DNA of 64,000 nucleotides from the NCBI GenBank assembly GCA_050084515.1, contig CM114271.1:24490001-24554000 (forward strand). The letters run 5' to 3'. The position numbers and the translations under genes were made by a program. Positions 27,401 through 63,720 of this stretch are shown one piece after another. The DNA is from Blasia pusilla. Taxonomy: Eukaryota. The notes beneath the pieces were generated by a model. The model was not told the origin of the DNA. It ran no database searches and saw only the letters and a program-made list of their open reading frames with translations. Position 1 is the first letter of the stretch. Each line of letters starts with the position of its first letter.

Positions 27401-29068
27401 GTGGAAAAATGATTAGGTGTGCCGTCTAAATCAAGACAACAAGATCCTCAAATGAAACTATTTTTGAAGAAAAGTGATTAGACGTGTCACTCTAAGTCAA
27501 GACATGGTGGTACACCTAGATTGGATAACTGTTAATTTTTTTTCAAAATTGATTCCATAACCTGAAAACATAAATATTAAAAAAATACAAACACCCCTAA
27601 CAACAATAATAAATATATTGTCCGTTCGAGTACGATGTTCAGTCTGAGGAAAACACCAGTTTACTATGAGTGTAAGCAGCAGGCTCTGTGTTTGGGGGGG
27701 GGGACCTTCTTTTGGGGCCCGTGACACAAGTCCCAGACCCAGTGACCAACCAATTCCCTCGGAAACAGTCCGTATGACCTCAGGTTCATAACGGTGGCCC
27801 GGGTTCCCAGTGCGAATACAGGTCGTGCGCTCAGTGTACCTTAAAATACGTGGGCCACGTGTGAGACCTCCTGCGTAGGGCCCGCGGTTTCTGTTCTGTA
27901 ACTTCTGTGTCGCTGGCGGCCGATGTCTGCTTTGCACTGATGCATCCCTCTACCGTCCTGCCGTTCTATCCATCTATTTACGCAGACTCAAGACGATGCG
28001 GGGTGATGGCTGCGCAACGACGGACGGGGTCTGTGGAGGAGGAGGAGTCCGTCTTCGGAACGGGAGGGAATTGGGGAGTGTTCGATCACGGGGAGGATTG
28101 CAGGTGGGAGAAATGCGGAAGTCTGGAAGCGAGGAGTGTACGGGGTGTCTGTGTTTTGATTGTGCTTGTTTGATGCTGGTGTGAAGATGATGGGTGTTTC
28201 GGGTGGTGGTGGTTGTTGAATTAGTCACGGGTTTCTTATGCGGAGTGATTTGGGTGTCTGAAACTCGTCGGCTGCAGTGCGGCTCATGGATCGCAGGCGT
28301 CCCTCGTGGTGTTGACCTACCTGCTCGGCGTTTTGGCGTCGAGAAGTTCTTGACGAAGGGAGGAAAGGAAGAATGGCAATTGGATCCGAGCTTCGGGTGG
28401 CTGCTTTTCCGAAACTCGGAAGAGTTCGATGAGTGAAATTGAGGCTCGCGGTTGGCAGAAGAGGAGTTGTTGCGATCCGGAGGTCCGATCATGCGCGATG
28501 AGCTCAGCAAATTTCGCCGGAGAGGAAGTCATGCTTTTCCGTTAGGATGGCGAGGAGGACGAGCTGTTTGATCCCGTCTCCTTTTCTTTTTCTCATTTAC
28601 CGTCTTCTTCGTCATTGAGATGCCGGAGATTGCTTGCTTTGAGCAGTCACAATTAGCACCCACAAAGGGCAGGGCACATCCCGGCGATCGATATCCTGTG
28701 AGTGCTGTGAGAATCTGTCAACTTCGAAGCAGATCTTCGGATGTGTAGAGTTTTTGTTGCTCCTAGTGTGGGAGGTGGGGATTCGTTTGACGAAAGATCG
28801 CCACGACTATTGCCGTTTTTCCGTACTTCGCGACTAGCGTCTGTGGCGCTCGTCTGGGATCCCATGGTTTCGAACTATGGCAGTGATGGGGTGGCGCTGT
28901 TGAAGGCTAGGGAATCGCCACGAGTGTCGGGCGTTAATTGATGAGCCTCCTCGTCTGAACATCAAAACAGGTTGCTCTGTCTGGGGGTTCCTTCGATCCG
29001 GATAAGGTAGAGTTCGCAGTGGCAATCTTTGTCTCCAGAGTTTCGAGGTGCGCCGCTGGTGTCGCCTA

Positions 29069-30793
29069 ATGGGTTACCTTTCATACTGCAGAGGTCGTTC
29101 AGCCGTCTTCACCTGCGATTCATGCAAGCGACCATCGAAGCCAGTGGATGTGAAGGTGTTCAAGTTCAGTGAACTCGAGAATGCCACACGAGGTTTTTCC
29201 GAGAGCAATCTATTGGGCAAAGGAAGCCATTCTTGCGTTTACAGGGGCAACCTGGAGGATGGGAGGGTCGTAGCAGTGAAGAGACCGACGGTTGGGCGCA
29301 GGGCTTTGCAGGATGTGTCTTCCTTCGACAACGAGCTCGAAATCTTGTCCAAGCTACAACACCGGCACTTGGTGAATCTTATTGGTTACTGCAACGAAGA
29401 CTCCGAAAGGCTGCTCGTGGTTGAATTTATGGGTAATGGTACTCTGTATGAGCTTCTTCATTGCAGTTCCGAGCCACTGAGCTGGCCCCTGAGGGTGCAC
29501 ATGGCTCTGCAAGCAGCCAAGGCCTTACTTGCTTTGCATTCCGCTTCTCCTCCCATCATACACCGCGATGTCAAATCTTCCAACATCTTGGTGGATGGAT
29601 CCTGGAATGCGAAAGTTGGAGACCTTGGACTGGCACTCCGTGGTAACCTAGAAGACGTCGTGCGACAAAGAACTCCACCGGCAGGGACGATGGGCTACAT
29701 AGATCCGGAGTACGAGACTCCATCACAGCTCAGCACCAAATCGGACGTCTTCAGTTTCGGGATTCTGCTGCTAGAGATTATGAGTGGGCGAAACGCAATT
29801 GACGTCAGATACAATCCTTCCGGGATTGTCGACTGGGCCGTGCCTCTCATCAAACAAGGAAAAGCGCTTGCGCTGTGTGATCCGACTCTCAATCCCCCTC
29901 AGAACGCCAAGGTGGTGAAACAACTCGCTGCTATCGCTGCCAGATGTGTGAGACTCTCCAGAGATAGGCGTCCGTCGATGGCCGATGTGGTGGAAGGCCT
30001 CCGCACTATTAGAAGAAAATGTCCTACTCCGCGCTTTGGTGGGAAACCGGCGAGGACCACGGCCTCTTCTCAGCCAGTCTTGAAGACTGAACCCACGGAA
30101 AGCCTCAGCGATAGTGGTTCCTCATGCCGATCCCAGAATCTTTCGATCTTCGATGAAGGCAGTATCCTCGACGAGGCGGAGATGTCCCGAGCGGAGTCTC
30201 TCATTAGAAGTCACACCTCAATTAGGAAACGCCTGAGGAATCTTTCCGATTCGTCAAGAGTGTCCGACAGCGAACTATTTCTAACAGCATCTGGCAGGAG
30301 GGGCGAGCTGCAAATTTTCGAACCCAACAGATCTACCTCCAGAGACCCCACGAAAAGAGAAGCGGGTCGGAGTGTCGTTGCTGTGACGCCATCCGCACAG
30401 GCTACAAGAAAGCCCGAAGATTCAGATTATTGCGCGAGGAGGGGAGATTGTACAGCCATCACTTCTGGAGAGAACAGAGTGAACCCTCGACGGACCATCG
30501 TGGGGGAGCGGAAAGCTCTACCGGGACTTTGGGAGATGGAGGAGAGCTCATCCAATGTCGAGGAAAGAACCACCACCGCAGGAGACGATTCGCAACATTC
30601 TGCCATGCAGAGATGCTTGAATTTGAGAGTCTCGACGGAATCCAGTCGTGACGCGAGTTTGGCGATGGGATGTGGGGTAGATGAGAGTAGCCATCACTCA
30701 CCCAAATGTGCAGAGGATGGTTGTCGGCAGCTCACGTACTGTCCAGATGAGAGACAGATGACTCAGATGTACAAAATGCCAATTTCTGCCTAA
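29069..30793 (+). CDS. Receptor-like cytoplasmic Ser/Thr kinase (At1g28390/At3g51990-like), intronless, 574 aa
   Basis: Starts MGYLSYC. Motifs LGKGSHSCVY, VAVKR, HRDVKSSN, DLG, GTMGYIDPEY, KSDVFSFG, RRPSM, then a long Ser-rich tail. The frame is open throughout. Confidence 0.95.
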   Translation: MGYLSYCRGRSAVFTCDSCKRPSKPVDVKVFKFSELENATRGFSESNLLGKGSHSCVYRGNLEDGRVVAVKRPTVGRRALQDVSSFDNELEILSKLQHRHLVNLIGYCNEDSERLLVVEFMGNGTLYELLHCSSEPLSWPLRVHMALQAAKALLALHSASPPIIHRDVKSSNILVDGSWNAKVGDLGLALRGNLEDVVRQRTPPAGTMGYIDPEYETPSQLSTKSDVFSFGILLLEIMSGRNAIDVRYNPSGIVDWAVPLIKQGKALALCDPTLNPPQNAKVVKQLAAIAARCVRLSRDRRPSMADVVEGLRTIRRKCPTPRFGGKPARTTASSQPVLKTEPTESLSDSGSSCRSQNLSIFDEGSILDEAEMSRAESLIRSHTSIRKRLRNLSDSSRVSDSELFLTASGRRGELQIFEPNRSTSRDPTKREAGRSVVAVTPSAQATRKPEDSDYCARRGDCTAITSGENRVNPRRTIVGERKALPGLWEMEESSSNVEERTTTAGDDSQHSAMQRCLNLRVSTESSRDASLAMGCGVDESSHHSPKCAEDGCRQLTYCPDERQMTQMYKMPISA

Positions 30794-46639: not shown

Positions 46640-49600
46640 TTCAAACCCTAAACCAGCCGCCGTGTCGTGCGCATACACATCTCTACACAACATACATCGC
46701 TGTCACCGAACACACACACAAACACGGACAATCTCATGCTAACTCATGGCATCCAAATACAAAGGCAAGAAGTACCAAAATATCTCCAATAAAGTAAGAT
46801 CCAATCTCTCTCTACACCATCTCTCAAAGGTGTGCACTCTCTCTCATGTCAAACCAAACCCACTCTCCTAATGAGAGTCTTGGGTTACATTCACAAGGCA
46901 AGGGACCATAGCTTTGCCGCCTCATGCCAAGAGGTTCAACAAAGAGAGAATGAGCTCTCAAGATCTCTCTCCTTGAGGTATACCCCTCCCCTCACCCAAG
47001 GTCTCTCCATGGTAACCTATTCTCCCAAGTCACCTCCTTGGCTCTTGACCTGATGTAGGAGGTCAACTTATCCTTGAGCAACTGAAATGCTCGCTCCTGC
47101 TCATCCCCCCAGTGCCACTCGTGATCCACCTTGGTTAGCAAGGTCAGCGGCTTTGCAATCGAACTGAATCCCTTGATATATCATCGATAGAAGTTCGCCA
47201 ATCCCATGAATGCGCTAACATGGCTCACATCTGTAGCGCGTGGAATGCGTGAGATAGCCTCTACCTTTGTTTGATGAACAACAAGGCCCCCTAGGTATAT
47301 CGTATGACCCAAGTACTCAATCTGGTCATAGAAGAACTTGCACTTGCCTGGATGTAGCTTCAGCCCATGTAATTGCAATCGTCAAAACACCTCCTCTAGA
47401 TGTCGCTCATACTCCTCAACCGTGGCGCTAAAGACTACGATGCCATCAATATAACACCTAGCAAAATCCAGACCAGCCAAGATCCTATCCATCACCCTCT
47501 AAAACTCATCCGGGCGTTCTTTAACCCAAATGGTAAGAACCGCCACTCGTACAAACAATCCTTCCCATGAGGATCAATGCCCCAAAATGCCGTCTTTTGC
47601 CTGTCCTCCAATCTGATAGGCAGCTGATGGTATCCGGCTTGCAAATCCAATGAACTAAAAACCTTTGCATGGCCAATCGCATCAAAGATCTCCTCAGGGG
47701 TGGGCATGGCATACCTATAAGACTTCCTTTGCCGATTGATAGGTCGGTAATCCCCACACATCCGCCTATCCGTCCAGTTGCCATGCACATCCTTCTTGGC
47801 GGGCATGACAATGGCATATGCATACTCCCCATGTGACATCTCCACTAGTCTTGCTCCAACCAAGTCCTCACTCCTACTCTGAATCAGATCCCTCTCCATA
47901 TCACTGTACATGTAGGGTTGTCATAAGATAGGCGTATAACTCGACAACTCAATGCAGATCCCCGGTCCCTCCAACGTACCCAAATCCTCCATGCTAAATG
48001 CAAAGAAGCTCCTATAACTCGTGAGGAACTGATATATTCGGCGCTGCTCTCCTCCTGTCAACTTAGGGCCCATACCTGGCTCCCAAGTCTCCATCGTGAC
48101 TACGGTAGGACTCTCCCGAGCGGATATCGGTGGTTGCTATGGTGCAACCGCGTCTTGAACAACAACACTCGACCGCTCTCCTACAGCCAAGTGCAAACTC
48201 TGATCTCATTCACATGCATTGCCGGGAACCACGCTCGATGCTGTGGCTATCATCTCCAGGCGTACCTGCAAAACATCCCAAGAAGTCCAAGGGTGTCTCT
48301 CTCGATCTCCCCTGGTGTGTCGATCTCCTCAGGTCTCGCCCACAGCCACTACCTCCACCGTCTTGGTAGGCATGGGGCTCACCAACGCAACTGCTGTGAT
48401 CTGGTGCGATCTCATCCGACGCTACTCAGCCACTCCCAAGCTGAAGATCCGTGTCAAGCAGTTCACGTCCATCGCCTGACCCAAGACATGGCATCGTGAT
48501 GCCTCTGATACTTACGATACTTCCGTCACTCCTGTGGGAAATCCCATCGCCCGCTCTCTCTCATCGACGTTGGGCTCCACTGACCTCTAAACCTGGTTAT
48601 CCCAAACCAAGCCTGGATTGGCCTCCTTGTGTGCATAGGAAGCAAGAAAACTCACAAACGTGGGAAAGGCTGCCCGCGTCTTGCCTACCATGTTGGCCAC
48701 AGTCAATGGTGGTCGATCATCATGCCTCACTGCCTATGAGCGACGACCTGGATCTAGAATGGAATCCACTAACAAATAGGAGGGGCGCTCCACTCTCGCA
48801 TACGCCCTCCATAACACCGCATAGGGCACCAAGTTGGTCCACCATAGACGCGGGCGATGGGCTCTAGAACCTACACTAGCCGCATCCAAGAACACTGGTG
48901 GGCCGATCCACGCACGCACCTAATGAGCACTCATCATCACCCGTGACCTGGAGTCTCCTAAGATCGGCACATTCTCCAGAATGTAGGCTGGAGAACAAGA
49001 CTGGTGCTCTTGCAACTACCGTAAGACCCTCAACATCTCCCAAAACAACCTGGACCGAGTGTTAGCCAACCCGCTGCCTCGTCCAGCACTCGATTGGCCT
49101 TGACATGGCCAATCGGCAATGACCAAATCAATGGTGCCTAACCGGTCTAAGTCCTGCGCCCCCAGCAACAAAATATCCCTCGGTAGGGAACTCTGGTACC
49201 CGTGTACGGCGCACGCACACAATAAGTCGGGAAAACATAGGCGTAACAGCGCCACATGTCGTAGTGAGACGCTCCTCGCAACATCATCATTCTCCACATA
49301 CAGGTATTGCTGCACTTGTACTCTTGCCTGCAAAACAACAGCTAACCCCGTGCTAATCCCTCCAAAGTGATCTAACATTCAAATACCCTCCTCCGGGGTA
49401 CACCACACAATGGGTGTGGTATCCAAGGGTGTCATCGTAGCACTCCCTGCTACCTCGGGTTCCTCAGGAGGGTGTCATGCTCTGGTTGAAACGCCTCGCT
49501 CCATGCGGTTTGCACGTGCTCATCTGCCAATCGTCGAAGCTCCTCAATCAAGCCCCACAGCGGCACCTCTCCTCCACAAAATGATGCGGTTACCATAACA

Positions 49601-52600
49601 CTCCTCGCCATAGAAATTTTAGGAATGGGAGTATCCTCTGCATAGACATGTCCCTCAATCAAATCACTAGGCCAATTGATGGCATTGCTAAATGCTGCTA
49701 AGGTCGCCATCTCTCCTAGCCGTTGCTCAATCACTGCACATCTGAATCAAACAAGTAATGAGCTAAGGCGCCCATCACATTACTGCCATCATGGTCTGTA
49801 GGACGCTGACTCTTCCCAATAGTCCCGGGAAAACCCCATCAGGTATAACACTGCTCCACCAACCAAGACGTCGTAGGACTCTACATCAGTCACTATCGCC
49901 TTGGCTCGCACCACAGACTCATCTGTAGGATGTCCGAGGAAAATCCTCACCACAACCTCATGTCGGGTGATATACTGTGTGGTACTCGCTCCACCCAAGG
50001 ATGTCTATATCCGGAATGGACAACGCTCCACATCGGCTCTCGTCAAGCCCAATCCTCTCAATGACGCTTTCCCCAACATAAGGGGTTGCGCTCCTGAATC
50101 CAACAAGACGCGTTGCGGACTAAAAGCTCTACCTCCCAGACTCACCAACTAGAAAATCTCTCCAGCAACACAACACCAATAAGCCATGGCACACTCTATC
50201 GCGGGTCTAGTAGGCATCTCTGCCATCCTAGCAGCCGCAAACTGCCATGAATCTCACGTGGATGGACCGAGCATCCGCTCCAAGGGCAGGTCCATCACCT
50301 CCTCTGCAATCACCTCTGAACGTGATGCAAGAACTCCAACTCCACGCTCACATAGCGTAGCGGCCAGCCGAAAAGCCTCGGCGGGCGTATCCCCCAACGT
50401 CATAACATCGGAAGCAGAAAATAATCGAGTGCAGTACACAATGGTGGCCGCCCCCAACAACGTGCTCGACACATGCCCCTCCTGAGCATAAATAATAGGA
50501 GTCGTTGCACTCGCTTCTCCCATGGCCCTCCGTGCTTGCATACCAACAACATCACGAACTCTCTAGGAACTCTGATCAGGACCCATCGATGGGGTCCTCA
50601 TCGCCTCGGACAACGTGAAAGACTGAGGAAGCCTAGTCTATTTCTTGGCTCCCCTTCACTGTGGATCCAACTCTATGGCTGCTCCATGCATCACAATTGC
50701 GGCAACCTCCATCTGGGCAACCCCGCACATCCAACCAGGACCCTCCATATCTCTGGCTGCTCCATATGATGTCGATGCCACGGATGGGGCATCGGGTAAT
50801 CTCAATGTCATAGCAGCAATCTGCTCATGTAGCTGATGTATCTGAGCAACCATCCTAGCCTCACACTTTGCATCTCCCTCAACGCGTCTAGGTGGTAGGA
50901 CTCTACCTCCTCCACGGGCAGCTCTACCACCCTGTCGGGAAACTCCAGCTCCTCATCCCCCAACGCGACCACCTAGTGCATGATCTCTAGGCCCACCTGG
51001 ACTGGCTACTCGCTCTGGCCCTCGGTCCGGACATAACTCAAGATGTAAACTGAAACACCTGGCGCGTGTATTACCATACCTTTAACAATAGTCACACTGA
51101 TAACCTCCTGGTGCACCACCATCTCCTCCTCCATGCAGAGGCACACGTCCATGACCCTAACGAGTGCAATCGCGTTGATGATGGCTCCACCACATGACGA
51201 ACAAGTAATAGTAGGCGGCTGCTACAGAGCCGCATATGAAGGCGCAGGTCTCTGTGGCACGGCCTCCCGATATCCTCCCTGAGCTCGTAGTGCCACAGTC
51301 AACCTATCTCAGAGTCCACGTTGCTGCACAGGTAGTGCAGACAATCGTGACTGCTCTCGCCCAGAACCCATGGTGGCTACACTCTCCTCCGCCATGTTGC
51401 GCTCAATGTTCTCGATGGTCTTGAAAACATCTCTCAACGTACGGGAGGTGTTCATAAGAAGCACCCCCTCCCGCACTCGTGTCCGCAGGGTCCGATCCAA
51501 CATCACATACAATGATTGGATAGCCTGAGCCTCTGTCACCCCTTGAGTGACGTTGATCAACCGGCGCAAGCGAGTGTAAGCCTCACGAAAACTCTCACCG
51601 GGGCGCCTCTGGAAGTCGTGGATGCTCCGCAACTTCTCCGTCCGTACCCTGTGGTACTTGGCCCTCAACTCAGCAAAGAACTCAACCTCAGCGTTGAACG
51701 TGGGACGAACCCGAATAGACGGTGCAACTACTCCCGTGCGAGTGACCCCTCCTAAAACGTCACGAGTGGAAGAGGAAGTAGCCTCTCCTCACTCCTCGTC
51801 CTCATCTGGGAATGGCTCCGTCCATCACACATAATGTGGGTCATAGTAGAGCCTCTACGCCTCGATGTCACGTGCATATCTCTGAGAGAACTCATGGTAA
51901 TCGTCCATGGGTGACCCTCTAAATGTTGGAACATACCGTTCCATGCTTATAACGGGTTGAACTCTCTAGAGTTCCCGGCCTGCTGCGAGTTGCACCAACT
52001 CCTAAACTCTGCTATGAAATCGTGCAACTCAATCGTGCCTACTGCACCTGAAAACCTACGGGGTCCTCTAACTTGATCGTCCATCTCGTACGCCCAACTG
52101 GTAGGACCACTCACAATGTGTGGCGATGTGCTCACAAACTCCTCTACACGCTCCCCCTCGTCTGAAGACGAAAGAGAAGGAGATCGAGGTGGTCACTCAC
52201 GTGGAGACCCTCGAAACCTCGCACCACTCCGGGTAACCCTCTAGAGCTACTCTCAAGTCTACTACCTCGCCTCTCAAAATCCTGAAAGGGCGCCATGATG
52301 GCCCTCATGCCCCTCTCACACGATCACTCTCAACCTCGCGAGTAATTCCTCAATCATTCATCCCAAACATGCGGCACTCGATCTACACTCTCCCTCCCCG
52401 AGACGTGTAACATGCAGCAACAAGCGGCGTGGTGCGGCAAATCGACAAGGCTATCATCTCATCGACAACCTACCCTCAACTTTGGACATCCCACACAGGT
52501 CTATGTCCCCTAAACCACATACATAAATAATGCTCTCAGCTTCCACACACCCAATATCCCCAAATAAACCACCCAAATCCCAGAATCTCTCACACGTGCA

Positions 52601-52780: not shown

Positions 52781-53149
52781 TGCAGTAAGAGGAGAGGAAG
52801 AGAGGAAGAGAGGAGAGAGGAGAGAGGAAACTACCTTCAACCGAAATAGATACTTTTTTTTGAAGAGAGTTTCCGTTGGGTTGAAGAGATGAAACTTTTT
52901 GTGTGAATTTTTTTGCACTTTTTTGTTCATTTATTAAACAATCCCACAGTTTTTTTTTCCTCTTCCATATTTTGGCAACCCCTGTGAGTCCGACGAGTTG
53001 CAAATTGCACAAAATTTACAAAACTGAAAAATCAGTGGAATCATAAGTGTGGAACCAATCACTTTTTCCATCCAAGGTCTGGAAAAAATCTATCATTTGC
53101 CCCGGGCTGAATAGAGTTCAAGCTCACAGTGAAGGTTGAGAAAAAAATA

Positions 53150-56100
53150 AAAGTACAATCTAAAACCTCATTTTGCATCCTCAAAGTGGTTTGTTTAAAA
53201 TACTTGAACTTCTTTGAGGGATGGGGTGGTTGGTGGATTCCTACTCCTACCTCCGACTCTCTTAAAACTACCAAACAACACATAGTACATGTGCTTACAA
53301 GGGAAATACCTTTTGCCACTTGTCTCTCTTTGGACAAAGTCATCACATGAACATGTGGGAAAGCAACACATGTGCACCATATACACCCCTGTGACACTTG
53401 AATTTACAGTGTTGCTCCTGACCCAATACATCCTTCCTATTCCATTGCCACTCAGGACATCTTTCGTGGCGATGATCTCCATTTTTGCCTCCCGAGCTGC
53501 TGCTATTCATTTTGCTCTCTCCACCGTTGGCCTACACATTCTGTTTCTCTTCACCCCATTTATAGACTCAAACAGAAATAATGGATTGAGATCATCCACC
53601 TTCTCCGGGTACATGTTGACATCAATCTTGGGTTGAATACGAAATGCGAAGGTCTCTGTAATGCGAACATGCTCCGAACTTCCCCCGTCTACGAGTCTGA
53701 AACCGGCACTTGTAAGATTGTCCACGCCGTCTTGAGTGCGATTCGTACTGCGGCGATGGGCCAAATCGTGGGGGTATTCCCGGGAGCTCTAATGGCAGCC
53801 GGATAAGACTTCCGGAAAGCGCAAGATTCATTTGGGCAGAAGAAGTACTTCAATTGATCCCCGGTCCTCGTGAAACGATCAAAGGTTTTGAGTCCCCAAA
53901 ACCCAGGCAGCGTGATCGTCGATCCTTTATGATTCTTATTTGGGAAAGTGCCGCATGCTCTCCTAATGCCATCGAGATCTGCCCTGTCAGAGGTGGGTCC
54001 ACGTCTGGTTGCTCCGAGATATATGCCACCGTTTTAGGTTGCAATCCACCTCCATTACCGGAATCCCATATTGTTGAACCACCCCAGTGACAGGATGTTG
54101 CGAACTTCCAGCAACGGAGGGCTTTTGAAATAAAACATTCACTGATTTTGGAGAAGTAACTCCATCACAGATTTGGGACGGGTCCGGGGTCCCCGAATAC
54201 TTGGGCGGTGTAATTTCCTCATCCAAATCAATCACCGGATTTGTTCCTCGATGCTGCCTCTTCACTTGCCTGAAGTCAAGATACTTATCTGGTCTCCACG
54301 AGTCTCGTTCGGACTGCTCTACCACCATCTGTATGGGACGTCTTGAAACCCGCCCACGAATATCCCCACCTATGTGTACGTCTTGCTCGAGTGGAGTTCA
54401 CTACGCACCGGTTGAAGGCCGACATACAATTTTTCATCACCAGATCTCATAGCCGCCCTGACATAGAGCTCGTAGATCGACGGCCCTTTTCCTTTTGTTA
54501 TGCCTTTTGTGAGGAAGATATGAGATGCTGCAGATTGTAGCATTGCTCTTGCCTGGTCTTGTTGGCATGCCTCCACAAGTGAAATTCGTTGGCATGCTTG
54601 TGATGACCTCCAAGAGGAATGAACACTTTCTGCTCCACTTGTGTTGGGGCAAAGGGCATTTTCATGAACGTTCAATCCCTGCAACGACGGCAATGTTAGA
54701 AGGGAACGAAAATAACCCAGGAGTCAAAGAAATAAGCGACCTGTCGGAACCAGACGGGTTGCAGGCTCGAGGCATCCCATGAACGACTCTGCGACACGTC
54801 GGGTCCCGACGTGTTGTAACCTTAAACCCACCTACTGCAACCCGTCGGAACCCGACGGGTTGCAAGGCCGAGGCATCCCATGAACGACTCTGTGACCCGT
54901 CGGGTCCCGAATGGTTGCACACTTGGGACCACACCAAACATCTGGATGCAACCCGTAGGTTTCCGTCGGGTTGCACACTCGGGAAACCCGTCGGTTTCCG
55001 TCGGATTGCACACTCGGGCAACCCGTCGGTTTCCGTCGAGTTGCACACTCGGGCAACCCGTCGCATCCGACACCTTGCTTGGTTTCTTGGGTTTGAATTC
55101 CATATAATTCCCACGCTTCTCACCCTGAGCTACAACTTTACAAACAATTCTCAGCGTGAGCTTGACAAGACAAAATAGTGAACTCACCTGCCCCATGAAG
55201 TTTCCCCATTGTCTCACACGTACAGTCCACCAACTCAACCAAGAGCACGACTCTTTGTACTTCCCCTCAATCGCATGCTTCCTCCACCACCCATGAAGTT
55301 CTTCCTGGCAGTCCATGGCCTGCTTCAAGGTTTTGCTGTCCTTGCAGCGTTGGAGTAGAGTCACATGCTCTGTCCTCTTATTCTCCTTGATGCAAGATTT
55401 GGTGTATCGGATCACAGACTGTTGCCAATGGAAAGCATCCGACCTTTCCCTCTCCGGTTGAACCTCTCCACCCCAGAACACTTCCCGGATAGCAATCCAC
55501 CCAGGTTGTGCATTGTCCGCCATGAACCCATAAATTTCCGGAGGTGGCTTTTTGTTTTCCTTCACCACCTCCAATAAGAGTGACCAACACATCTTCAAAC
55601 TGCCAACGTCTTCTGCCTTTACTTCACACACAAATATAGTTTTGAGTCCCTTCTCCACATGGTCATAAACGTGAGCACCCATCGTCAACCATCCGTTCAG
55701 CACTCTGTAGCAAATATCAAAGTTGACCCAGCTCCCGTAAAGATCTTCCCCTTTCCTCATTCGATCTATTAGATCGAGGCCACTCGAGGGACGTGTGGTT
55801 GACATTTTGAAGACATAGGCCCTGGATCCCTCGCCTCCTTGGCCCATGAACTGCCATCTCTGAATGAATGGAAATCTGGAGTTGGCCTTGATTCTGGCGA
55901 TGGCATCCATTTCGGCCGTCTTTCCATCCAGAACTCGTATCTGACGCAACAAATTCCGGAAGCATTAAGGATCAGCGAGAAATGCGAGATTTTCCCAAAG
56001 TTGTTTCTCCTCAACCGCCGTGATCTCGCCCTGTCCAGGAATTCCAAGCAATTGTTCACAAATTTGTGATGCCGTTGTGAGCTTGATCACCCCGGGCTTT

Positions 56101-56900
56101 GAACGCGGAGAGTTTCTGAAGACCTCGGCTACTTTCTTCGCCACATCCTCCTTGATGTGTCTTTGAATTGCATCGGTCACAGGATGAGTGTGGGAGCCAA
56201 CATGAAGCGCCACCTTGTATACTCGGCGTGGAGCCCAAGTCATGGACAATGAAAAATATGTATGCAGGACACGCTCCAACGAAGGGCGATGCGACAATGA
56301 GGACATCGATGGCCTCCCGGCGGTATTGTGGCACCCACCTCGTATGGAGTTTCTGCATTCTTGGGGGAATTGCGGCGTATTGACTCGCCCGTTTGCGCTC
56401 TAGATACGAGCATGCTGGACTTCTACACTCCAAGGCTCCCACGCATTGGCGGCGGGAGACAATCCAAGGACCATCGGGATGGAAGCACCGGTCCGTTGCG
56501 TACCTGCACCATCGATGACAATCAGACTTTCTGTCCATACCCTTCAGGCGTCCTCCATCCTTCTTTTGAGCAGGAGCAGCAAGTGGAGGCAACTCAAAAA
56601 TGCAATTACCATTGTACGTGGGCTGCAGCTCATTGACAAGAATGTGCTTGAACATTTTCAAGGCGTAGACGAAAGCAAACTATTGCCGATACTCGCAAGA
56701 GAACGAGTAGGCGGACACAGGCCCGATTGGTGTCCAAGCAGATCGCCGAGGTTGATAACATCCGGAATCTCTTGAGGAAGAACAACATTGTTACGAGTGT
56801 GCAAAGTTGGAGTCGAAGCCAGATCTGCAGAGCTTGGAGTTGCAAACGTAGAGCTCGGAGCACTAGGAAATTCTAGACCGTCTACTTGGGAAACAGACGA
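53150..56900 (-). pseudogene. MULE-type DDE transposase with N-terminal GCM/WRKY-like Zn finger and C-terminal SWIM finger, frameshifted; intron 54679-55187
   Basis: N-term RRQCVGALECRSPAC..GACPAY..HVGSHTHP. Catalytic core NFDICY, FMADNA, DAFHWQQS. After splicing (GNFMGQ|gtgagt...gcag|GLNV) comes GAESVH. SWIM CSCDDF..PCKH in ORF 53195-53482. Confidence 0.85.
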
Positions 56901-59900
56901 ATTCAGGGAGGGCCGTAAACTTTGTATTGACCATTTGCTCTGGTAGGAGATTCCATACTTTACGGTGCGAGGTCACTTTGGATGGACCGTCTCACCTATT
57001 ATGTCTTCCGTACCTTCCACCCTAACATCTTTGGATACAAAGATGGTTCCAATTGAAGAAGAAATCAAGCAGACAGAAAATTTTCATCCATTGCTACGAA
57101 AGACTCACGAGCTTGGGGTCGAATGATTTCGATTGAGGAAGGGCATAAGATGACCGCCACAAGTGAGCTTAACATAATTATCCATTCCAAGAAGATTCCT
57201 ACGAGGAGAGGCGAGAATGAGAATGAGAATATTTAATTTATAGTGAATAGGAAACAAATACTCTGATGATTTTTCTTGACAAGATGAATTCGGTGGGGAG
57301 ATTATCGACACAATGGATCAATTTTGTAACACATTCAATTGTGTTGCAATATGTTACCGGATTTGGGAAGCATAGGGTTGCGCATCACTTGGAACCCGTC
57401 GGAGTCCTGGTAACTCAGAAATTACCCGAAGCTTACCGAAGCCTACAACCCGTCGGCATCGGACAGGTTGCACGCTTCTGCTAAACATTGTCGAAGCGAG
57501 CAACCCGTCGCTCTCCGACGACTTGCTGCGATACCGCTCCTTCTTGCTCGAAGATGCCGGAGGCGTGCAAACCGTCTGTTCCCGACGAGTTCCGCGGGTG
57601 CCTCGCCTTTTAGCCCAAAGACGGCGAGGCGTGCAACCCGTCGCCGTCCAACGGGTTGTGCAAGGGCGTCGCCTTGTGGTGCAGCCAGCCAAACTCCGAC
57701 GACTTGCACGGGAAGCCATCGTTCCTAACCCTTGATGAGGGAAGCGTGCAACCCAACAGTCTCCGACGGATTGCCCAAAATACGTCCGTTCCGTCCCAAA
57801 CACGCGGAGGCGCGCCAACATGTCGGTCTCCGGCGGCTTGCGCGGGTACCTCGCGTTGTTTTCGAAGACGACGGAGGCGCTCAACCCGTCGGTCTCGGCG
57901 GGTTGCTCGCCCACGCGTGGCGATTTTCGCAGATTGCGAGGCGTGCAACATGTCGGTCTCGACGGGTTGCGCGGGTACCTCGCGTTCTTTTCCGAAGACG
58001 ACGGAGGCGCTCAACCCGTCGGTCTCCGACGGGTTGCTCGCGCACGTGGTGACGTACCCAGGATGGCGGAGCCAGACAACCTGTCGGACTCCGACGGGTT
58101 GCGATTTTTCACGTCCGGACTTCTGTAACATTCGGCACGTCGCCGTCGAAAGGACGACGGGACCCAACGGTCAGCCCAACGGCTAGAAAAGTATAAATAG
58201 GGCAGAAATCGCTCATTTCCGGTTTCTCATTTCGCGATCTTCATTCCTCACTCCTCACTCTCCCGCGCAGCAGCTGATCAGATATAAAGGGGCATTTCAC
58301 GCGGCGACACATCGCGAGTCGATAGGAGGGAACGAGAGCGAGACGGTTCGACCGAGCAATATCGGGACGATTCGAGCTAACCATCAAGGCGAGACGAGCT
58401 CCCATCTCGACATCAACAAGGCGACTGATCAAGGGATTTGTCGTGGGCATAGGTGGAGGCATTTCCGGCAAAAATGACGAGGAAAAAAACACAATCCAAC
58501 AAGTCTGGGAGCTTCACTCCCAAGTCCATTAGGACTCTGCGTCGACTTCTCTCCCGGCCTCGTTCGCGAATGAAATTAAGCGGCAGGAAATCGAGGAGCG
58601 GAAAGGGAAGCGGAGATGCACAACCAAGTGCTTCTGGCGAGACGTGTTCAAGCGGCGCTAGATAAAGCGAACGAAGAGGCCGGGCGTCGCAGGCCTTGAA
58701 GAAAAGGATCGCCGGCGAAAAGAGAGAAAAGAAGCGCCGGGCGCGTCGGTGAGGAGGCGGAATTGGCTAAAGCGAGGCGGAAAAAGCGATAGCCATTGCG
58801 ATAGCCCAGCCCATCCAACCGCAAGTGTTGAGATGCGGGAAATGTCCCCACGAAGTCGGGGACACAATCAACATAGTGGAATCAACACCGAGTTCAAATC
58901 GATGACGACGAGGTCATGAGGAGATGACGCAGGAGGTCAGCGTGGAGATGGTGGACATGGGGAAGAAACCGGAGAGCGGTCATTTCGACTCCAAGCCGGC
59001 GGAGGACATCGACCTCTATCGGATCGACGAGTTCCCGATCGATTTGCCCCTATCTCAGACAAGTTAGTGGTCAAGAAACCGACTCCATTTTCGGCGGGTA
59101 AGAGAAGTTAGGTTTTTAATTATGTGAATTGCAATTCATTGGGATTTCGGTGTAGCTTATTCCTCTTGTCCCATTCGGCGGGTGGTAAAGCGCAGATGGC
59201 ACTCATGGAGGCCCAACGCCCGAGGATTCCACTCTGCGATTAAGGACAATGGAATACGTCCCAAAATCTGATCCAGCGAGGACATCGCAAAGCTAAAACA
59301 ATCGGCGCATAAAGCATCCCTCGTGGGCGAGTTTTCCTCCCTTCTATGTTCGGCCTTACGGACGAGCATGGAACCCAAGCTCAGTTACCGAGGAGGACTT
59401 GGAAAATCTCGACACATTCTACGGAGGATGCGAGACCAAGACTTGAGAAGGCAAGTTGAGGGCACGGAATTCAGCTGGATGAGGAATCTACATTTCTTCA
59501 TCTCGGGATGGAAATCACGAGTTCATGGCGTGGACCAAGTTTGCGGAGGAGCGCCCCAACTCATTGAGGCACATTTCTGCGTGAAGGCGGTGGTCCTTCA
59601 CCCATACCCTCATCACATGGCGGCGGTGGAGATGGCAATGCATGCCATGAACACGTAAGTATCTTTAACATTTTCGCGGCTCGTCGGACTCGGCGAGTTG
59701 CTCGATTGATGAATGGGTTAGGTTTGTTTAGGCGAAAGCAACTTCGTCGGACTCGGCGGGTTGCTAGAAAACACTGATTTTCGGATGTTTTTAAGATTGA
59801 TTTTCGTCGGACTCGGCGACTTGTTTGATGGAACATAAATTTAACTAGTTTTTGGCCCAAAGCAAACCGTCGGAGTCGACGGGTTGCTGACGAGCCGCCT

Positions 59901-60490
59901 TGTGAGGTTGTTTTTAAGAATGCAACTTCGTCGGACTCGACGAGTTGCTCGAGTAACAGCGAGGTTTAGAAGGTTTTGCCCCAAAGCAACCCGTCGAAGT
60001 CCGACGGGTTGCTTGCCTCAAACCATTTTTGGCGAAATCAACCCGTCGGACTCCGGACGGGTTGATATGGGGAAAAATAGCTTTGAGGCAAGCAACCCGT
60101 CGGACTTCGACGGGTTGCTTTGGGGCAAAAACCTTCTAAACCTGCGATCCTCGAGCAACTTGTCGAGTCCGACGAGTTGCATTCTTAAAAAACAACCTCA
60201 CGAGGCGGCCTATCGAGCAACCCGTCGGACTCCGATGGTTTGCTTTGGACCAAAAACTAGTTAAATCTATGTTCAATCATACAAGTCGTCGGAGTCTGAC
60301 AGTTGCAATCTTAAAAACATCCGAAAGCGTCGCGATCAAAGAACCGTCGGAGTCCGGCGAGTTGCTTACCTGGCATTAGCAAATCTGAATGCAACCCGTC
60401 GGACTCCGACGGGTTGCATCATTTAGCTTGTTGCTAGAATCCGACCCTGAGCTGTGATGACCCGTCGGAGTCCGACGAGTTGCAGGAACC
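54740..60490. repeat. Clusters of the palindrome GCAACCCGTCGGA-N-TCCGACGGGTTGC
   Basis: Perfect copy at 60391-60417. Many variants at 54740-55070, 57370-58130 and 59680-60490, plus copies or half sites at ~52975 and 62372-62450. Confidence 0.95.
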
Positions 60491-62150
60491 CATGTAATTT
60501 CCTGACGGGTTGAGTTTGGATGTGTAGGATTGTATCCGAGGGGAATGTCACCCACCATTGGATCAGGACTGCAATCGGGTGAGGAAGGTGCTTACGACGC
60601 ACCCAGGAGAGTACAGGGGGTTCTTGGGCGATGCCCTCGTCAATCACATGCTTGCAAAGGATGCTCAGATTAAGAAGAAAACTTGGGCAAACAAGTTTAT
60701 TTCTCAAGATGCAGCCATAACCATCCTTTGCTGGTCGAAGATACAGCACAAGAAAAGCGCCTGACTGGAGCCGGAGCGGAGGGAGAAGGTATCTAAGTCG
60801 AGCGCCAAATTCATCAAGCCAGATGTCTGCTGCAACGAAATACACGGCGAGCAAGATGCGGCGATACATCAAGCATTCTCAACCCCGAACTTGGTCCGGA
60901 GTTCTACAAGGAGCTCAAGGCGATTATCAGCGTCGGCGGAAGAGGGATGAAGATCCCATGGTCGGAATGGGGAGAAAGTGTCATTTGGATCGCGTGCATC
61001 GTTTTGCGTTATCCGGGATTAGCGAGTTCAGAGGATACGATCGATGAAAATCGATCTCGAGGGCTCAAAGGCCGGAAGAGGGCGACACACCATCCTCGGG
61101 TGTGTCCGATCTAGTGATCTCGCATTGGCTACGTGAATGGTCGTTCGGGGCGGCGTTGCGGGTAATCGGGAAGTCCGTCTTTGGCCGACGGATGATGCAA
61201 GCGGAGCTCGAGAAGATTAGAGCCCATCCGCCGGAAGCAAACCTTGAAAGTTATGGAGATTACGAGGTTTGGCTCGGCGACATCGGGACAAGCCAACCAA
61301 GAACCAGGATTCAAGACCATGTTCAAGGTTTGCGTCCTCCCTCGGCGAGCTTGACGAAGAAGTAGAGGGTAACAAACGGGATCAAGCGAAAGAAGAAGCG
61401 AGATCTGAGGAGCGACGGCCGATAATGTTCGACTAAAAGCTGCCCAACGGATGGTATTCAGGTACCTCATCGAGTGTAAGAACGCAGGTACGTGGGGAAA
61501 ATTACCGGCATCCTTGAAATTGTGGGCTTCGCCGTCGGATGCAGAGACATTCTCCATGTACGACGTGGAGATGGGTCAGCACATGTCGGATTGGGAGGTG
61601 GAGAATTGCCCCATTTGGCTCGACTTCAACGACCCTGAAGACATCATGGATAAGGACTTACGAGTGCTTCATGATGCAATGGCCTCAGGACAAGACGACA
61701 TCCCCAATTTCGTCCAGCCTGAAGACTTCTTCGTTGTACAATTAGATAGTTTGTACAATTCGCCCCCCGGGAATTTACATGCAAGACAGTACCCCGGTTC
61801 TGGGAGGAAGGGAAAAGTTGCCAGCCCTGATGCAAACGCTCATCAAGCTCTGCTCAAGGCCGGGTGACTTGGTGTTCGACTTAGTGGGCCTTTCAGGGCG
61901 AGTATCGAGGCGCTGGCATAGTGGCAGGAACATTCTCGCCTCGAGGAAGGCAGAAGCGTTTGACCTTTGCAAGGAGGCAAAGCGAATCTGAAAGGCTCGT
62001 TGGGGCGTATAACTCTCCACCGAAGCCGAGAGCTCCGGTTCCAGAGCCACCCTTGGTAGTGACTCCATCATCACTTCCAACGATTCCCAAAATCGGGAGG
62101 GCAAGGCCGAAAGTGATTTTGCAAGAGCTCTCGGACGATGACGAGTGAGT
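58474..62150 (+). pseudogene. Spliced cargo gene: basic N-terminus, ParB/Srx-like motif, N4C/N6A methyltransferase-like C-terminal segment; frameshifted
   Basis: TATAAATA at 58192. GT-AG introns ~59098-59155 and 59655-60527. FFI/DGNHEFMAW at ~59494-59533. REKLPALMQTLIKLCSRPGDLVFDL..HSGRNILA in ORF 61779-61991. Confidence 0.55.
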
Positions 62151-62460
62151 TCAAAGAACTCAACGACCAGCTTGATTTGCGGCGTTTGGAGTAGGGACTT
62201 TTTGATAATTTGGCGAGAAGATTTCATAGAATAGATCAAATGTCTGATTCCAAGCTTTTTCGGATGATATAAAGCAGAAGATTTATTCGATCGATGGTGG
62301 TGCTTGTAAATGTTTGGTGATCATTTTGTCTTTCGAATGTGATCGTCTATGTACTCCACGGTCTTCTACTTTGCAACCCGTCGGATTTCTCCCGCTTGCA
62401 ATTTTCACTTTATGACCATCGCAACCCGTCGGATTTCTCCTCCTTGCAACTTTTTGCTTT

Positions 62461-63720
62461 TTGACCATGGACCCTTTTACCACCTCCAGGCAGCTTTGTC
62501 TGATTCGACAGTTGCCTGATCGGACCCTTTCGGATCGGCGATGGCGGGCTTCTTCCCTTGGCACATTCCCTCAACTCGTAAAGGAAGGCGAGGCTTCTTT
62601 TCTTCTCGACGTGTTGGATTCCTTCTACCTGTGCGGTTGCCATAGTGGTATTACCGGGGGCGGAGCAGATATTGATCTTGGATGGGTGTCACATTGCAGA
62701 GCGTACAAGGTATCTTGCCGAGGAAGGCGGTGGGACTCGAGACAGTTACATGGGACCGTTATGGTGTACCTAGGGGGGCCAAGGCTCTCGGTCGCCAACA
62801 TTTTCGATCCCCGTCTACAACCGGCCGGGAGGAGCCACTTGAATCCCGGGACATTCCTTTGGTACATGCCATCGAGGAGAGTTAGGAGTAAATTTGTAGA
62901 TGACGAGGTGAAGAAATCATAGACTAGGTTCAATGTACATTTCGAGGTTCCTTCGGAGGTAATAAAGGGCGAGATTTTTGAACCCATAAAGGTGTTGGTA
63001 AAAGTTTTCGGAATATGTTTTTGGACTTGTGGAGGTGGTGCAAGAGAAAGGCCCAAAGGCGAGTGTCCAAGAACAAGTCAAGAAGATTGTACAAGGTGAT
63101 AATGCAGCCAAGTCACTCCATTGACCTCAAGCCTAGAGGAGACAAGGGAGATGGTGTAGGCACTAGGGAGTCTCAGGGTATCCAATGAAGGAGATAGAGT
63201 GCTTGATTGTTTGTTGTAGAGGAGGGTTTGAACCAAGGGGTGGATCTGATTGTTAGGGCCAAGAAATGAAGAATAAGGGGCTAAGAAGAGGTCAATGGAG
63301 GCTGAGCTCAAATGCTTGGACTCTTGTGGGCTAGAAGATTCCTCATGGAAGCCTAGAGGACCTCATTTGAAGGCCATAAAGCTTGAGAATCCAAGGGAGA
63401 GATCTATGGAGTTGAGAGGATCCAAGGAGTGATTTGTGGAAGATTTGTGCGAGGTGGAGCTAAGTGGAGGTGTGAGCGAGGGCGGGGCTCGAACCAGATT
63501 GAGAAGAAGCAAGCATGGGAAGAATATAGAGGTAGATCTCACCTTCAAGCATGTCCAAGAGACAGTCGAGCCTATGCCATCAATGTTGCTCAAGAGGCTT
63601 TAGTTAGGGCAGGTTTAGAAGTAGATGAGGTAGAAATTTCAGGCAGTAGATGCCTTGGAGTAGATGCTTAGGGTTGGCATCCGGGTGGTCCTCCAACAAA
63701 AATACCAAGGGCACCTTTGC
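62461..63720 (+). pseudogene. Possible third, unrecognised coding region of the MULE-like element
   Basis: Coding-like + strand ORFs 62461-62922 and 63429-63671 with purine-rich degenerate frames between them. No motif recognised. Confidence 0.3.

Follow-up and report, generated by a model that had tools for sequence, protein, structure and literature searches.

Results

A methylase-like reading frame in a repeat of Blasia pusilla

The stretch of DNA analysed here, the window, comprises 64,000 nucleotides of a Blasia pusilla contig (CM114271.1, assembly GCA_050084515.1) and is repeat-rich eukaryotic DNA with remains of Ty3/gypsy and copia elements, a protein kinase ORF and other elements. An ATG-started ORF of 70 aa lies at positions 61779–61991 of the plus strand, in frame B, and closes with a TGA stop codon. 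Within it, the stretch REKLPALMQTLIKLCSRPGDLVFDLVGLSGRVSRRWHSGRNILASRKAEAFDLCKEAKRI (61809–61988, plus strand) can be likened to enzymes of the N6_N4_Mtase family, PF01555, at motif X, at motif I in degenerate form, at the 'GRN' of motif II and at the last helix. Frame B as a whole, translated from 61746 to 61991 on the plus strand, ends in GGREKLPALMQTLIKLCSRPGDLVFDLVGLSGRVSRRWHSGRNILASRKAEAFDLCKEAKRI followed by the stop.

The initial annotation had read this peptide as a SAM-binding segment of a beta-class N4C/N6A methyltransferase interrupted by an apparent local frameshift. The quoted peptide is present in a single frame within the 70-aa ORF, and since its flanks run uninterrupted in frame B, the SAM-binding part can be read without a frameshift; the bracketed residues 'ASIEA' derive from a different frame, SGPFRASIEALA, which ends at a stop. 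A frame change does occur further upstream. The frame A stretch LDSLYNSPPGNLHARQYP (61742–61796, plus strand) lies immediately before the methylase-like part, and frame A, whose whole extent is 61409–61867, passes into frame B by a +1 change at about 61793–61797. Upstream of a junction described below, the frame A ORF at 61409–61733 (plus strand) contains 'PIWLDF' at 61611–61628, which agrees with the position of about 61610 given earlier, and has no methylase likeness. The residues Y-N-S-P-P occur twice, at 61757–61771 in frame A and at 62008–62022 in frame C, about 250 nt apart, which may be coincidental or may record a small internal duplication.

Arrays of a palindromic motif, CAACCCGTCGG...CCGACGGGTTG, flank the methylase-like block, and two 48-nt units in which CAACCCGTCGG recurs are found at 62373–62468. 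The motif is about 27 nt long and has the form GCAACCCGTCGG-NNN-CCGACGGGTTGC. With at most one mismatch, the window contains 40 instances of its 11-nt core where 0.84 are expected, and 36 of the 40 fall within 52990–62432, in clusters at 54750–55064, 57392–58101, 59863–60512 and 62374–62432. These arrays may belong to a DNA transposon, as subterminal repeats or as repeats that bind protein. A search for terminal inverted repeats of the carrier element returned only the hairpin motif. A TATA-like sequence, 'TATAAATA', stands at about 58193, after the array at 57.4–58.1 kb. The same motif makes up a palindromic insertion at 59733–60387, with a self-inverted match of 87.7% over 559 nt at 59779–60326; contigs of other organisms (X2 and X5) skip 59733 to 60387, so the insertion is peculiar to this copy or to a few copies. 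Inside the window, no further copy of the methylase-like segment was found, and only the hairpin-motif arrays recur.

Likeness to PF01555 lies below significance in every search

PF01555 or beta-class DNA methylases rank first or alone in Pfam, PHROGs, a protein atlas and tblastn, always below significance. The family proposed for the resemblance in the initial annotation was thus the right one. The best Pfam match of the ORF is PF01555, with E = 0.029 and 14.8 bits over profile positions 168–193 of 221, against a Pfam gathering cut-off of 26.7 bits for this family. Reading the upstream frame A through raised the score to 15.1 bits (E = 0.023) and still left it below the cut-off. At E ≤ 10, Pfam returned only PF01555 and DUF4661 and no Dam-type family, and NCBIfam gave no match for the read-through peptide, frame C or frame A. 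In PHROGs only three families were returned, all described as 'DNA methyltransferase', with E-values from 0.0051 to 0.35 (0.0051, 0.012 and 0.11 among them). Of 30 feature matches in the protein atlas, 26 belonged to the PF01555 set with scores of 0.90–0.93, which is borderline by the tool's own calibration: 4–10 of every 100 shuffled proteins reach 0.9, and one third obtain ten matches to the same family. The PF01555 clusters shared 168 and 166 features with the ORF, below the tool's mark of 170. All of these methods read the same ~50 residues, and they therefore amount to one observation rather than to independent lines of evidence.

As a control, we scanned with Pfam all 124 stop-to-stop ORFs of 72–92 aa in the window. 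Six of them matched a family at E ≤ 0.05: the methylase-like ORF, one probably real RVT_1 and four chance matches. The four, found among the 123 other ORFs, were to Nudix_N, Phage_mat-A, GntR and DUF1433, and their E-values (0.013–0.026) were all better than that of the PF01555 match. Because the window holds 1352 stop-to-stop ORFs of at least 30 aa, about 39 equally good matches to some family are expected in it; the corresponding figure for PF01555 alone is about 0.0016 (0.029/24736 × 1352).

These figures cut both ways for the reading that the likeness is due to chance, that is, that a frame open by chance in decaying repeat DNA, or a piece of an unrelated lineage-specific repeat protein, carries a pattern, 'P..L...LI...S.PGD.V.D...G.SG....GR', that happens to mimic the core of a class I methylase. 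The better E-values of the four control ORFs favour it, as do E-values of 0.005–8 throughout our searches, atlas scores near the level of shuffled proteins and feature counts below the tool's mark. Against it stand the low expectation for this one family and the fact that the same family came first in four kinds of search, whereas the controls were not confirmed by a second method. None of six control ORFs gave any PHROGs family, including all four with equally good chance matches in Pfam, and the control ORF with the GntR match had zero plasmid matches at E ≤ 10 in tblastn.

The matches fall on the C-terminal part of real beta-class enzymes

Searched with tblastn at E ≤ 10, phage genomes yielded 159 records and plasmids 42, with E-values between 0.4 and 8. 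Of the 40 phage matches listed, 33 lay on annotated DNA methylases, from phages of Gordonia, Bacteroides and Escherichia, and 7 elsewhere; of the 40 plasmid matches listed, 38 were DNA methyltransferases. Three matched proteins that we checked (L001, L002 and L003; 224, 240 and 360 aa) are true PF01555 members, scoring 107.5, 86.8 and 159.1 bits. In all three the match covered the C-terminal part with motifs X, I and II (residues 155–213 of 224, 169–213 of 240 and 277–321 of 360). Alignment to these enzymes shows the order X-I-II with the motif X helix in the C-terminal part, and a three-way alignment with two real PF01555 enzymes is collinear over about 70–80 residues at 32% and 36% identity. 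Features shared with beta-class enzymes (M.RsrI, 1eg2, and the three proteins above) are the motif X helix P-A-L..T-L-I, 'RPGDLV.D', 'G.SG', 'GRN' and a last helix ending in 'AKRI', after which the ORF ends. Its stop codon falls at the position that corresponds to the enzymes' end. That diverse real enzymes are all matched in this C-terminal region and in a constant order, and that the matches extend on either side of the residues originally noticed, up to a stop codon where the enzymes end, argues against chance.

Comparison with PDB chains was less specific. M.RsrI was matched over residues 226–276 with E = 1.8, and a precorrin methylase, two light-harvesting proteins and a helicase equalled or beat its score; equal scores for chains that are not methylases count in favour of the chance reading. 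The top match was the precorrin-6y methylase 3njr (E = 0.12–0.13), aligned across motif I.

The catalytic half is missing and motif I is degenerate

Where beta-class enzymes have D-P-F-x-G-S-G-T-T, motif I of the segment reads D-L-V-G-L-S-G-R-V; the D, the S and the second G are kept, and the P, the F, the first G and the TT are lost. The catalytic motif IV, (D/S/N)PP(Y/F/W), expected far upstream of motif X, was not found, and TSPPY is absent from every frame read. Frame A and five other upstream ORFs gave no PF01555 signal in Pfam at E ≤ 10, and the frame A ORF at 61409–61733 had no usable match in the atlas (recognition 1951). This upstream frame is thus not protein-like to the atlas, a point in favour of chance.

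Two candidates for motif IV were rejected. 'PIWLDF/NDPED', the former part of which had been offered as the nearest catalytic candidate, is ruled out because frame A holds no PF01555 signal. 'NSPPG', in the frame A stretch LDSLYNSPPGNLHARQYP, lies 17 aa before motif X; in BLASTP against the 360-aa PF01555 enzyme, LDSLYNSPPGNLHARQYP aligns with 'VWSYPPVQYYAGKHPC' and 'NSPPG' with the 'YPP' therein. 'VWSYPPVQYYAGKHPC' stands immediately before motif X and is non-catalytic; the DPPY of that enzyme is at residues 35–38. The suspicion that the domain is degenerate and devoid of DPPY/SPPY is in accord with these results. Membership of PF01555 itself was not borne out: unlike the beta-class enzymes, the segment stays below the family cut-off, has lost the first Gly, 'DPF' and 'TT' of motif I, lacks the (D/S)PPY half and the target-recognition region, measures 70 aa as an ORF against the 224–360 aa of real enzymes, and sits in a eukaryotic repeat.

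A single-sequence AlphaFold2 model of the window copy had a pLDDT of 60.2 and predicted a strand in place of the helix expected after motif I. Foldseek returned no PDB match at E ≤ 0.001 and no methylase among the matches listed. On the Rossmann methyltransferase fold, a model of such low confidence is too weak to count either way.

The carrier is a many-copy, diverged and transcribed repeat

Alignment of public sequencing runs placed 59500–63500 in a repeat whose copies are many and diverged. One DNA run contributed 25,395 contig pieces in identity classes from above 99% down to below 90%, and two other organisms were represented at lower depth. In the window copy a junction is present at 61733–61742: contigs of two other organisms agree with it as far as 61733, or from 61742 onward, and diverge beyond, which means that the sequence preceding the block in other copies is absent from the window. 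At this point 102 and 114 letters are unmatched in two X2 records (12 and 13) and 209 in an X5 record (21), and one contig of other organisms joins 60416 to 61742. The 30 letters listed on either side of the extra sequence in the junction contigs are open in frame A; together with the at least 102 and 114 additional letters, this indicates that sequence is missing at the junction.

In the raw reads of one RNA run (X17), which bears the same species label as the DNA run above, the depth was 18.6–33.3 in the bins of 61778–62179 and 0–3 in the bins upstream, with first mates on the minus strand. The tail past the stop codon (61992–62179, plus strand) is still covered by RNA reads from diverged copies. 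Most of the X17 reads are partial matches from such copies, the share running into unlike sequence being 0.78, and some skip 61899–61958, inside the supposed fold.

Read as codons, the changes that prevail in other copies replace L by S at 61819, K by E at 61845, H by Q at 61919 and A by L at 61956–7. Among the variants listed, these changes bring the peptide no nearer to PF01555 and do not repair motif I, 4 of 13 variants in these frames fall at third codon positions, and none alters the stop codon of the 70-aa ORF; 231 further variants exist. No reverse transcriptase or integrase was found near the segment on either strand of 57–64 kb among ORFs of at least 110 aa.

Searches for relatives

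With phmmer, frame B found no relative and no plant protein among 1.84 billion protein representatives. Four matches at E ≤ 0.001 were judged to be due to chance; of the three inspected (P0001, P0002 and P0004), two plainly consist of tandem repeats, and the third protein is long and repetitive. Word-index searches for longer protein relatives returned none for frame B or frame A. In metagenome contigs, a protein-pattern scan gave 593 stretches, none of them confirmed, and an exact 24-mer scan gave 0 matches. This absence of relatives from the protein representatives, two word-index searches and two metagenome scans is in line with chance. For another element of the window, the same libraries hold relatives of only 59–67% identity; Blasia thus seems to be poorly represented in them, and the negative result is a weak one.

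Other elements in the window

On the plus strand at 29006–30790, an uninterrupted ORF of 595 aa contains a protein kinase domain (PK_Tyr_Ser-Thr, E = 6.3e-42) and is probably a host gene among the repeats. On the minus strand at 53100–56700 lie ORFs of 380, 207 and 144 aa without any Pfam match, the 380-aa ORF running into a hairpin-motif array. By eye they resemble a Mutator-like transposase with a SWIM-type Cys/His stretch (53195–53506).

A decayed LTR-type retroelement at 47184–51788 of the minus strand has, between its protease-like stretch and its reverse transcriptase, a piece of a C5 cytosine DNA methylase. The parts of the element, all on the minus strand, are gag (51312–51788, E = 0.0042), the protease-like stretch 'LLDSGAQPLMLGK' (50008–50148), PF00145 (49019–49378, E = 1.8e-6), in which the motif I 'FGGIS' and 'PCQG' are visible, and RVT_1 (47495–47920 and 47184–47381). 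Ten longer relatives with 48–67% identity were found, and the three that we read all have the same protease-like stretch followed by the methylase; one of them is a protein named by its source as from Sphagnum troendelagicum. The element lies 12 kb from the methylase-like ORF, on the other strand, and is a different element. It is probably of a known kind, since a transposon-borne 'Gypsy-DNMT3' of streptophytes is cited as previously described in the available part of one report (10.64898/2026.05.21.726589).

Discussion

The segment at 61779–61991 is not a working, transposon-borne methylase. The window copy cannot methylate DNA because the (D/S)PPY catalytic half and the target-recognition region are missing and residues of motif I are lost, and, to judge from the sequence, no likely reading would have this copy methylate DNA. 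The likeness to PF01555 is too weak to tell an old, dead gene fragment from chance.

The reading we favour, tentatively and at a little under an even chance, is that the segment is the dead remnant of part of a beta-class DNA amino-methylase gene of prokaryotic or viral type, carried as a passenger in the repeat. Only its C-terminal SAM-binding piece would remain, with the motif X helix, motif I in degenerate form, the 'GR' from motif II and the final helix, and the likeness would be due to descent. The relic would ride inside a many-copy, diverged repeat of a bryophyte-type plant genome, and the fragment may have been picked up, or left behind, by that repeat; any peptide made from it would presumably have no enzymatic role. 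Repeats and transposons of plants can carry gene fragments, as in Pack-MULE-type capture. The segment shares with such captures that it is a short, partial, non-functional gene piece in a transcribed many-copy repeat, and differs from them in that no parent gene was found for it.

A chance resemblance, for and against which the searches and controls have been weighed above, is a serious competitor to which we attach substantial probability, also short of even.

It is improbable that the window contains the damaged copy of an element which, where intact, codes for a complete and working beta-class N4C/N6A methylase. The junction at 61733/61742, where contigs of other organisms have further sequence that is open in frame A over the letters listed, speaks for this reading, as do the RNA reads from diverged copies that cover 61778–62179 on the expected strand. 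Adenine methylases borne by retroelements are known in other eukaryotes, according to the available part of one report (10.64898/2026.05.21.726589). On the other side, no similar protein was found among the 1.84 billion representatives, though relatives of another window element are present there; motif I is already degenerate, and the majority changes listed for other copies leave it so. The same report, in the part available, gives DAM elements as absent from Streptophyta.

Those DAM domains belong to DIRS and LTR retrotransposons and are described, again in the available part of that source (10.64898/2026.05.21.726589), as lying in pol ORFs beside a reverse transcriptase or tyrosine integrase. 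As there presented, they have in common with the segment the concept of a mobile element with a prokaryote-type DNA amino-methylase; the segment differs in having no adjoining reverse transcriptase or recombinase and no Dam-type Pfam match. A DIRS-type MT domain is accordingly rejected, there being no such enzyme nearby among ORFs of at least 110 aa within 57–64 kb and the family being a different one.

The initial annotation had also raised the prospect of a transposon-borne relative of the 4mC methylase of Marchantia. MpDN4MT1a/b, in the portion of their description available (10.1101/2021.02.12.428880), are complete, sperm-expressed host genes for 4mC methylases and contain TSPPY. On that account they share with the segment the plant-lineage setting and the prokaryote-type arrangement of amino-methylase motifs, whereas the segment has no TSPPY in the frames read and phmmer gave no plant protein for it, from a library that may lack DN4MT1. 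The proposed kinship is not supported: neither a plant relative nor any other was found among the 1.84 billion representatives.

That the repeat captured a fragment of some other class I SAM-dependent methylase, for example a host enzyme acting on small molecules or RNA, is very unlikely: precorrin-6y methylase 3njr is the best PDB match and is aligned over motif I, but in Pfam, PHROGs, the atlas and tblastn it is the DNA amino-methylases that come first, with no other methylase family given, and phmmer found no plant protein.

By itself, a catalytically empty, sub-threshold fragment of 70 aa changes nothing; it is a pointer toward collecting the repeat family and any longer copies. If the likeness reflects descent, as in the relic reading that we prefer, the segment would be a further trace of bacterial or viral DNA-methylase genes in the plant lineage, here borne by a repeat, and would bear on how 4mC and 6mA enzymes arrived in eukaryotes. 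There is only a slight likelihood that the repeat family descends from a mobile element that once carried a complete beta-class N4C/N6A methylase, which some undeleted copies perhaps still carry. If true, this would place a transposon-borne amino-methylase in Streptophyta, where such elements are reported to be absent, and would suggest a possible route of entry for genes like Marchantia DN4MT1.
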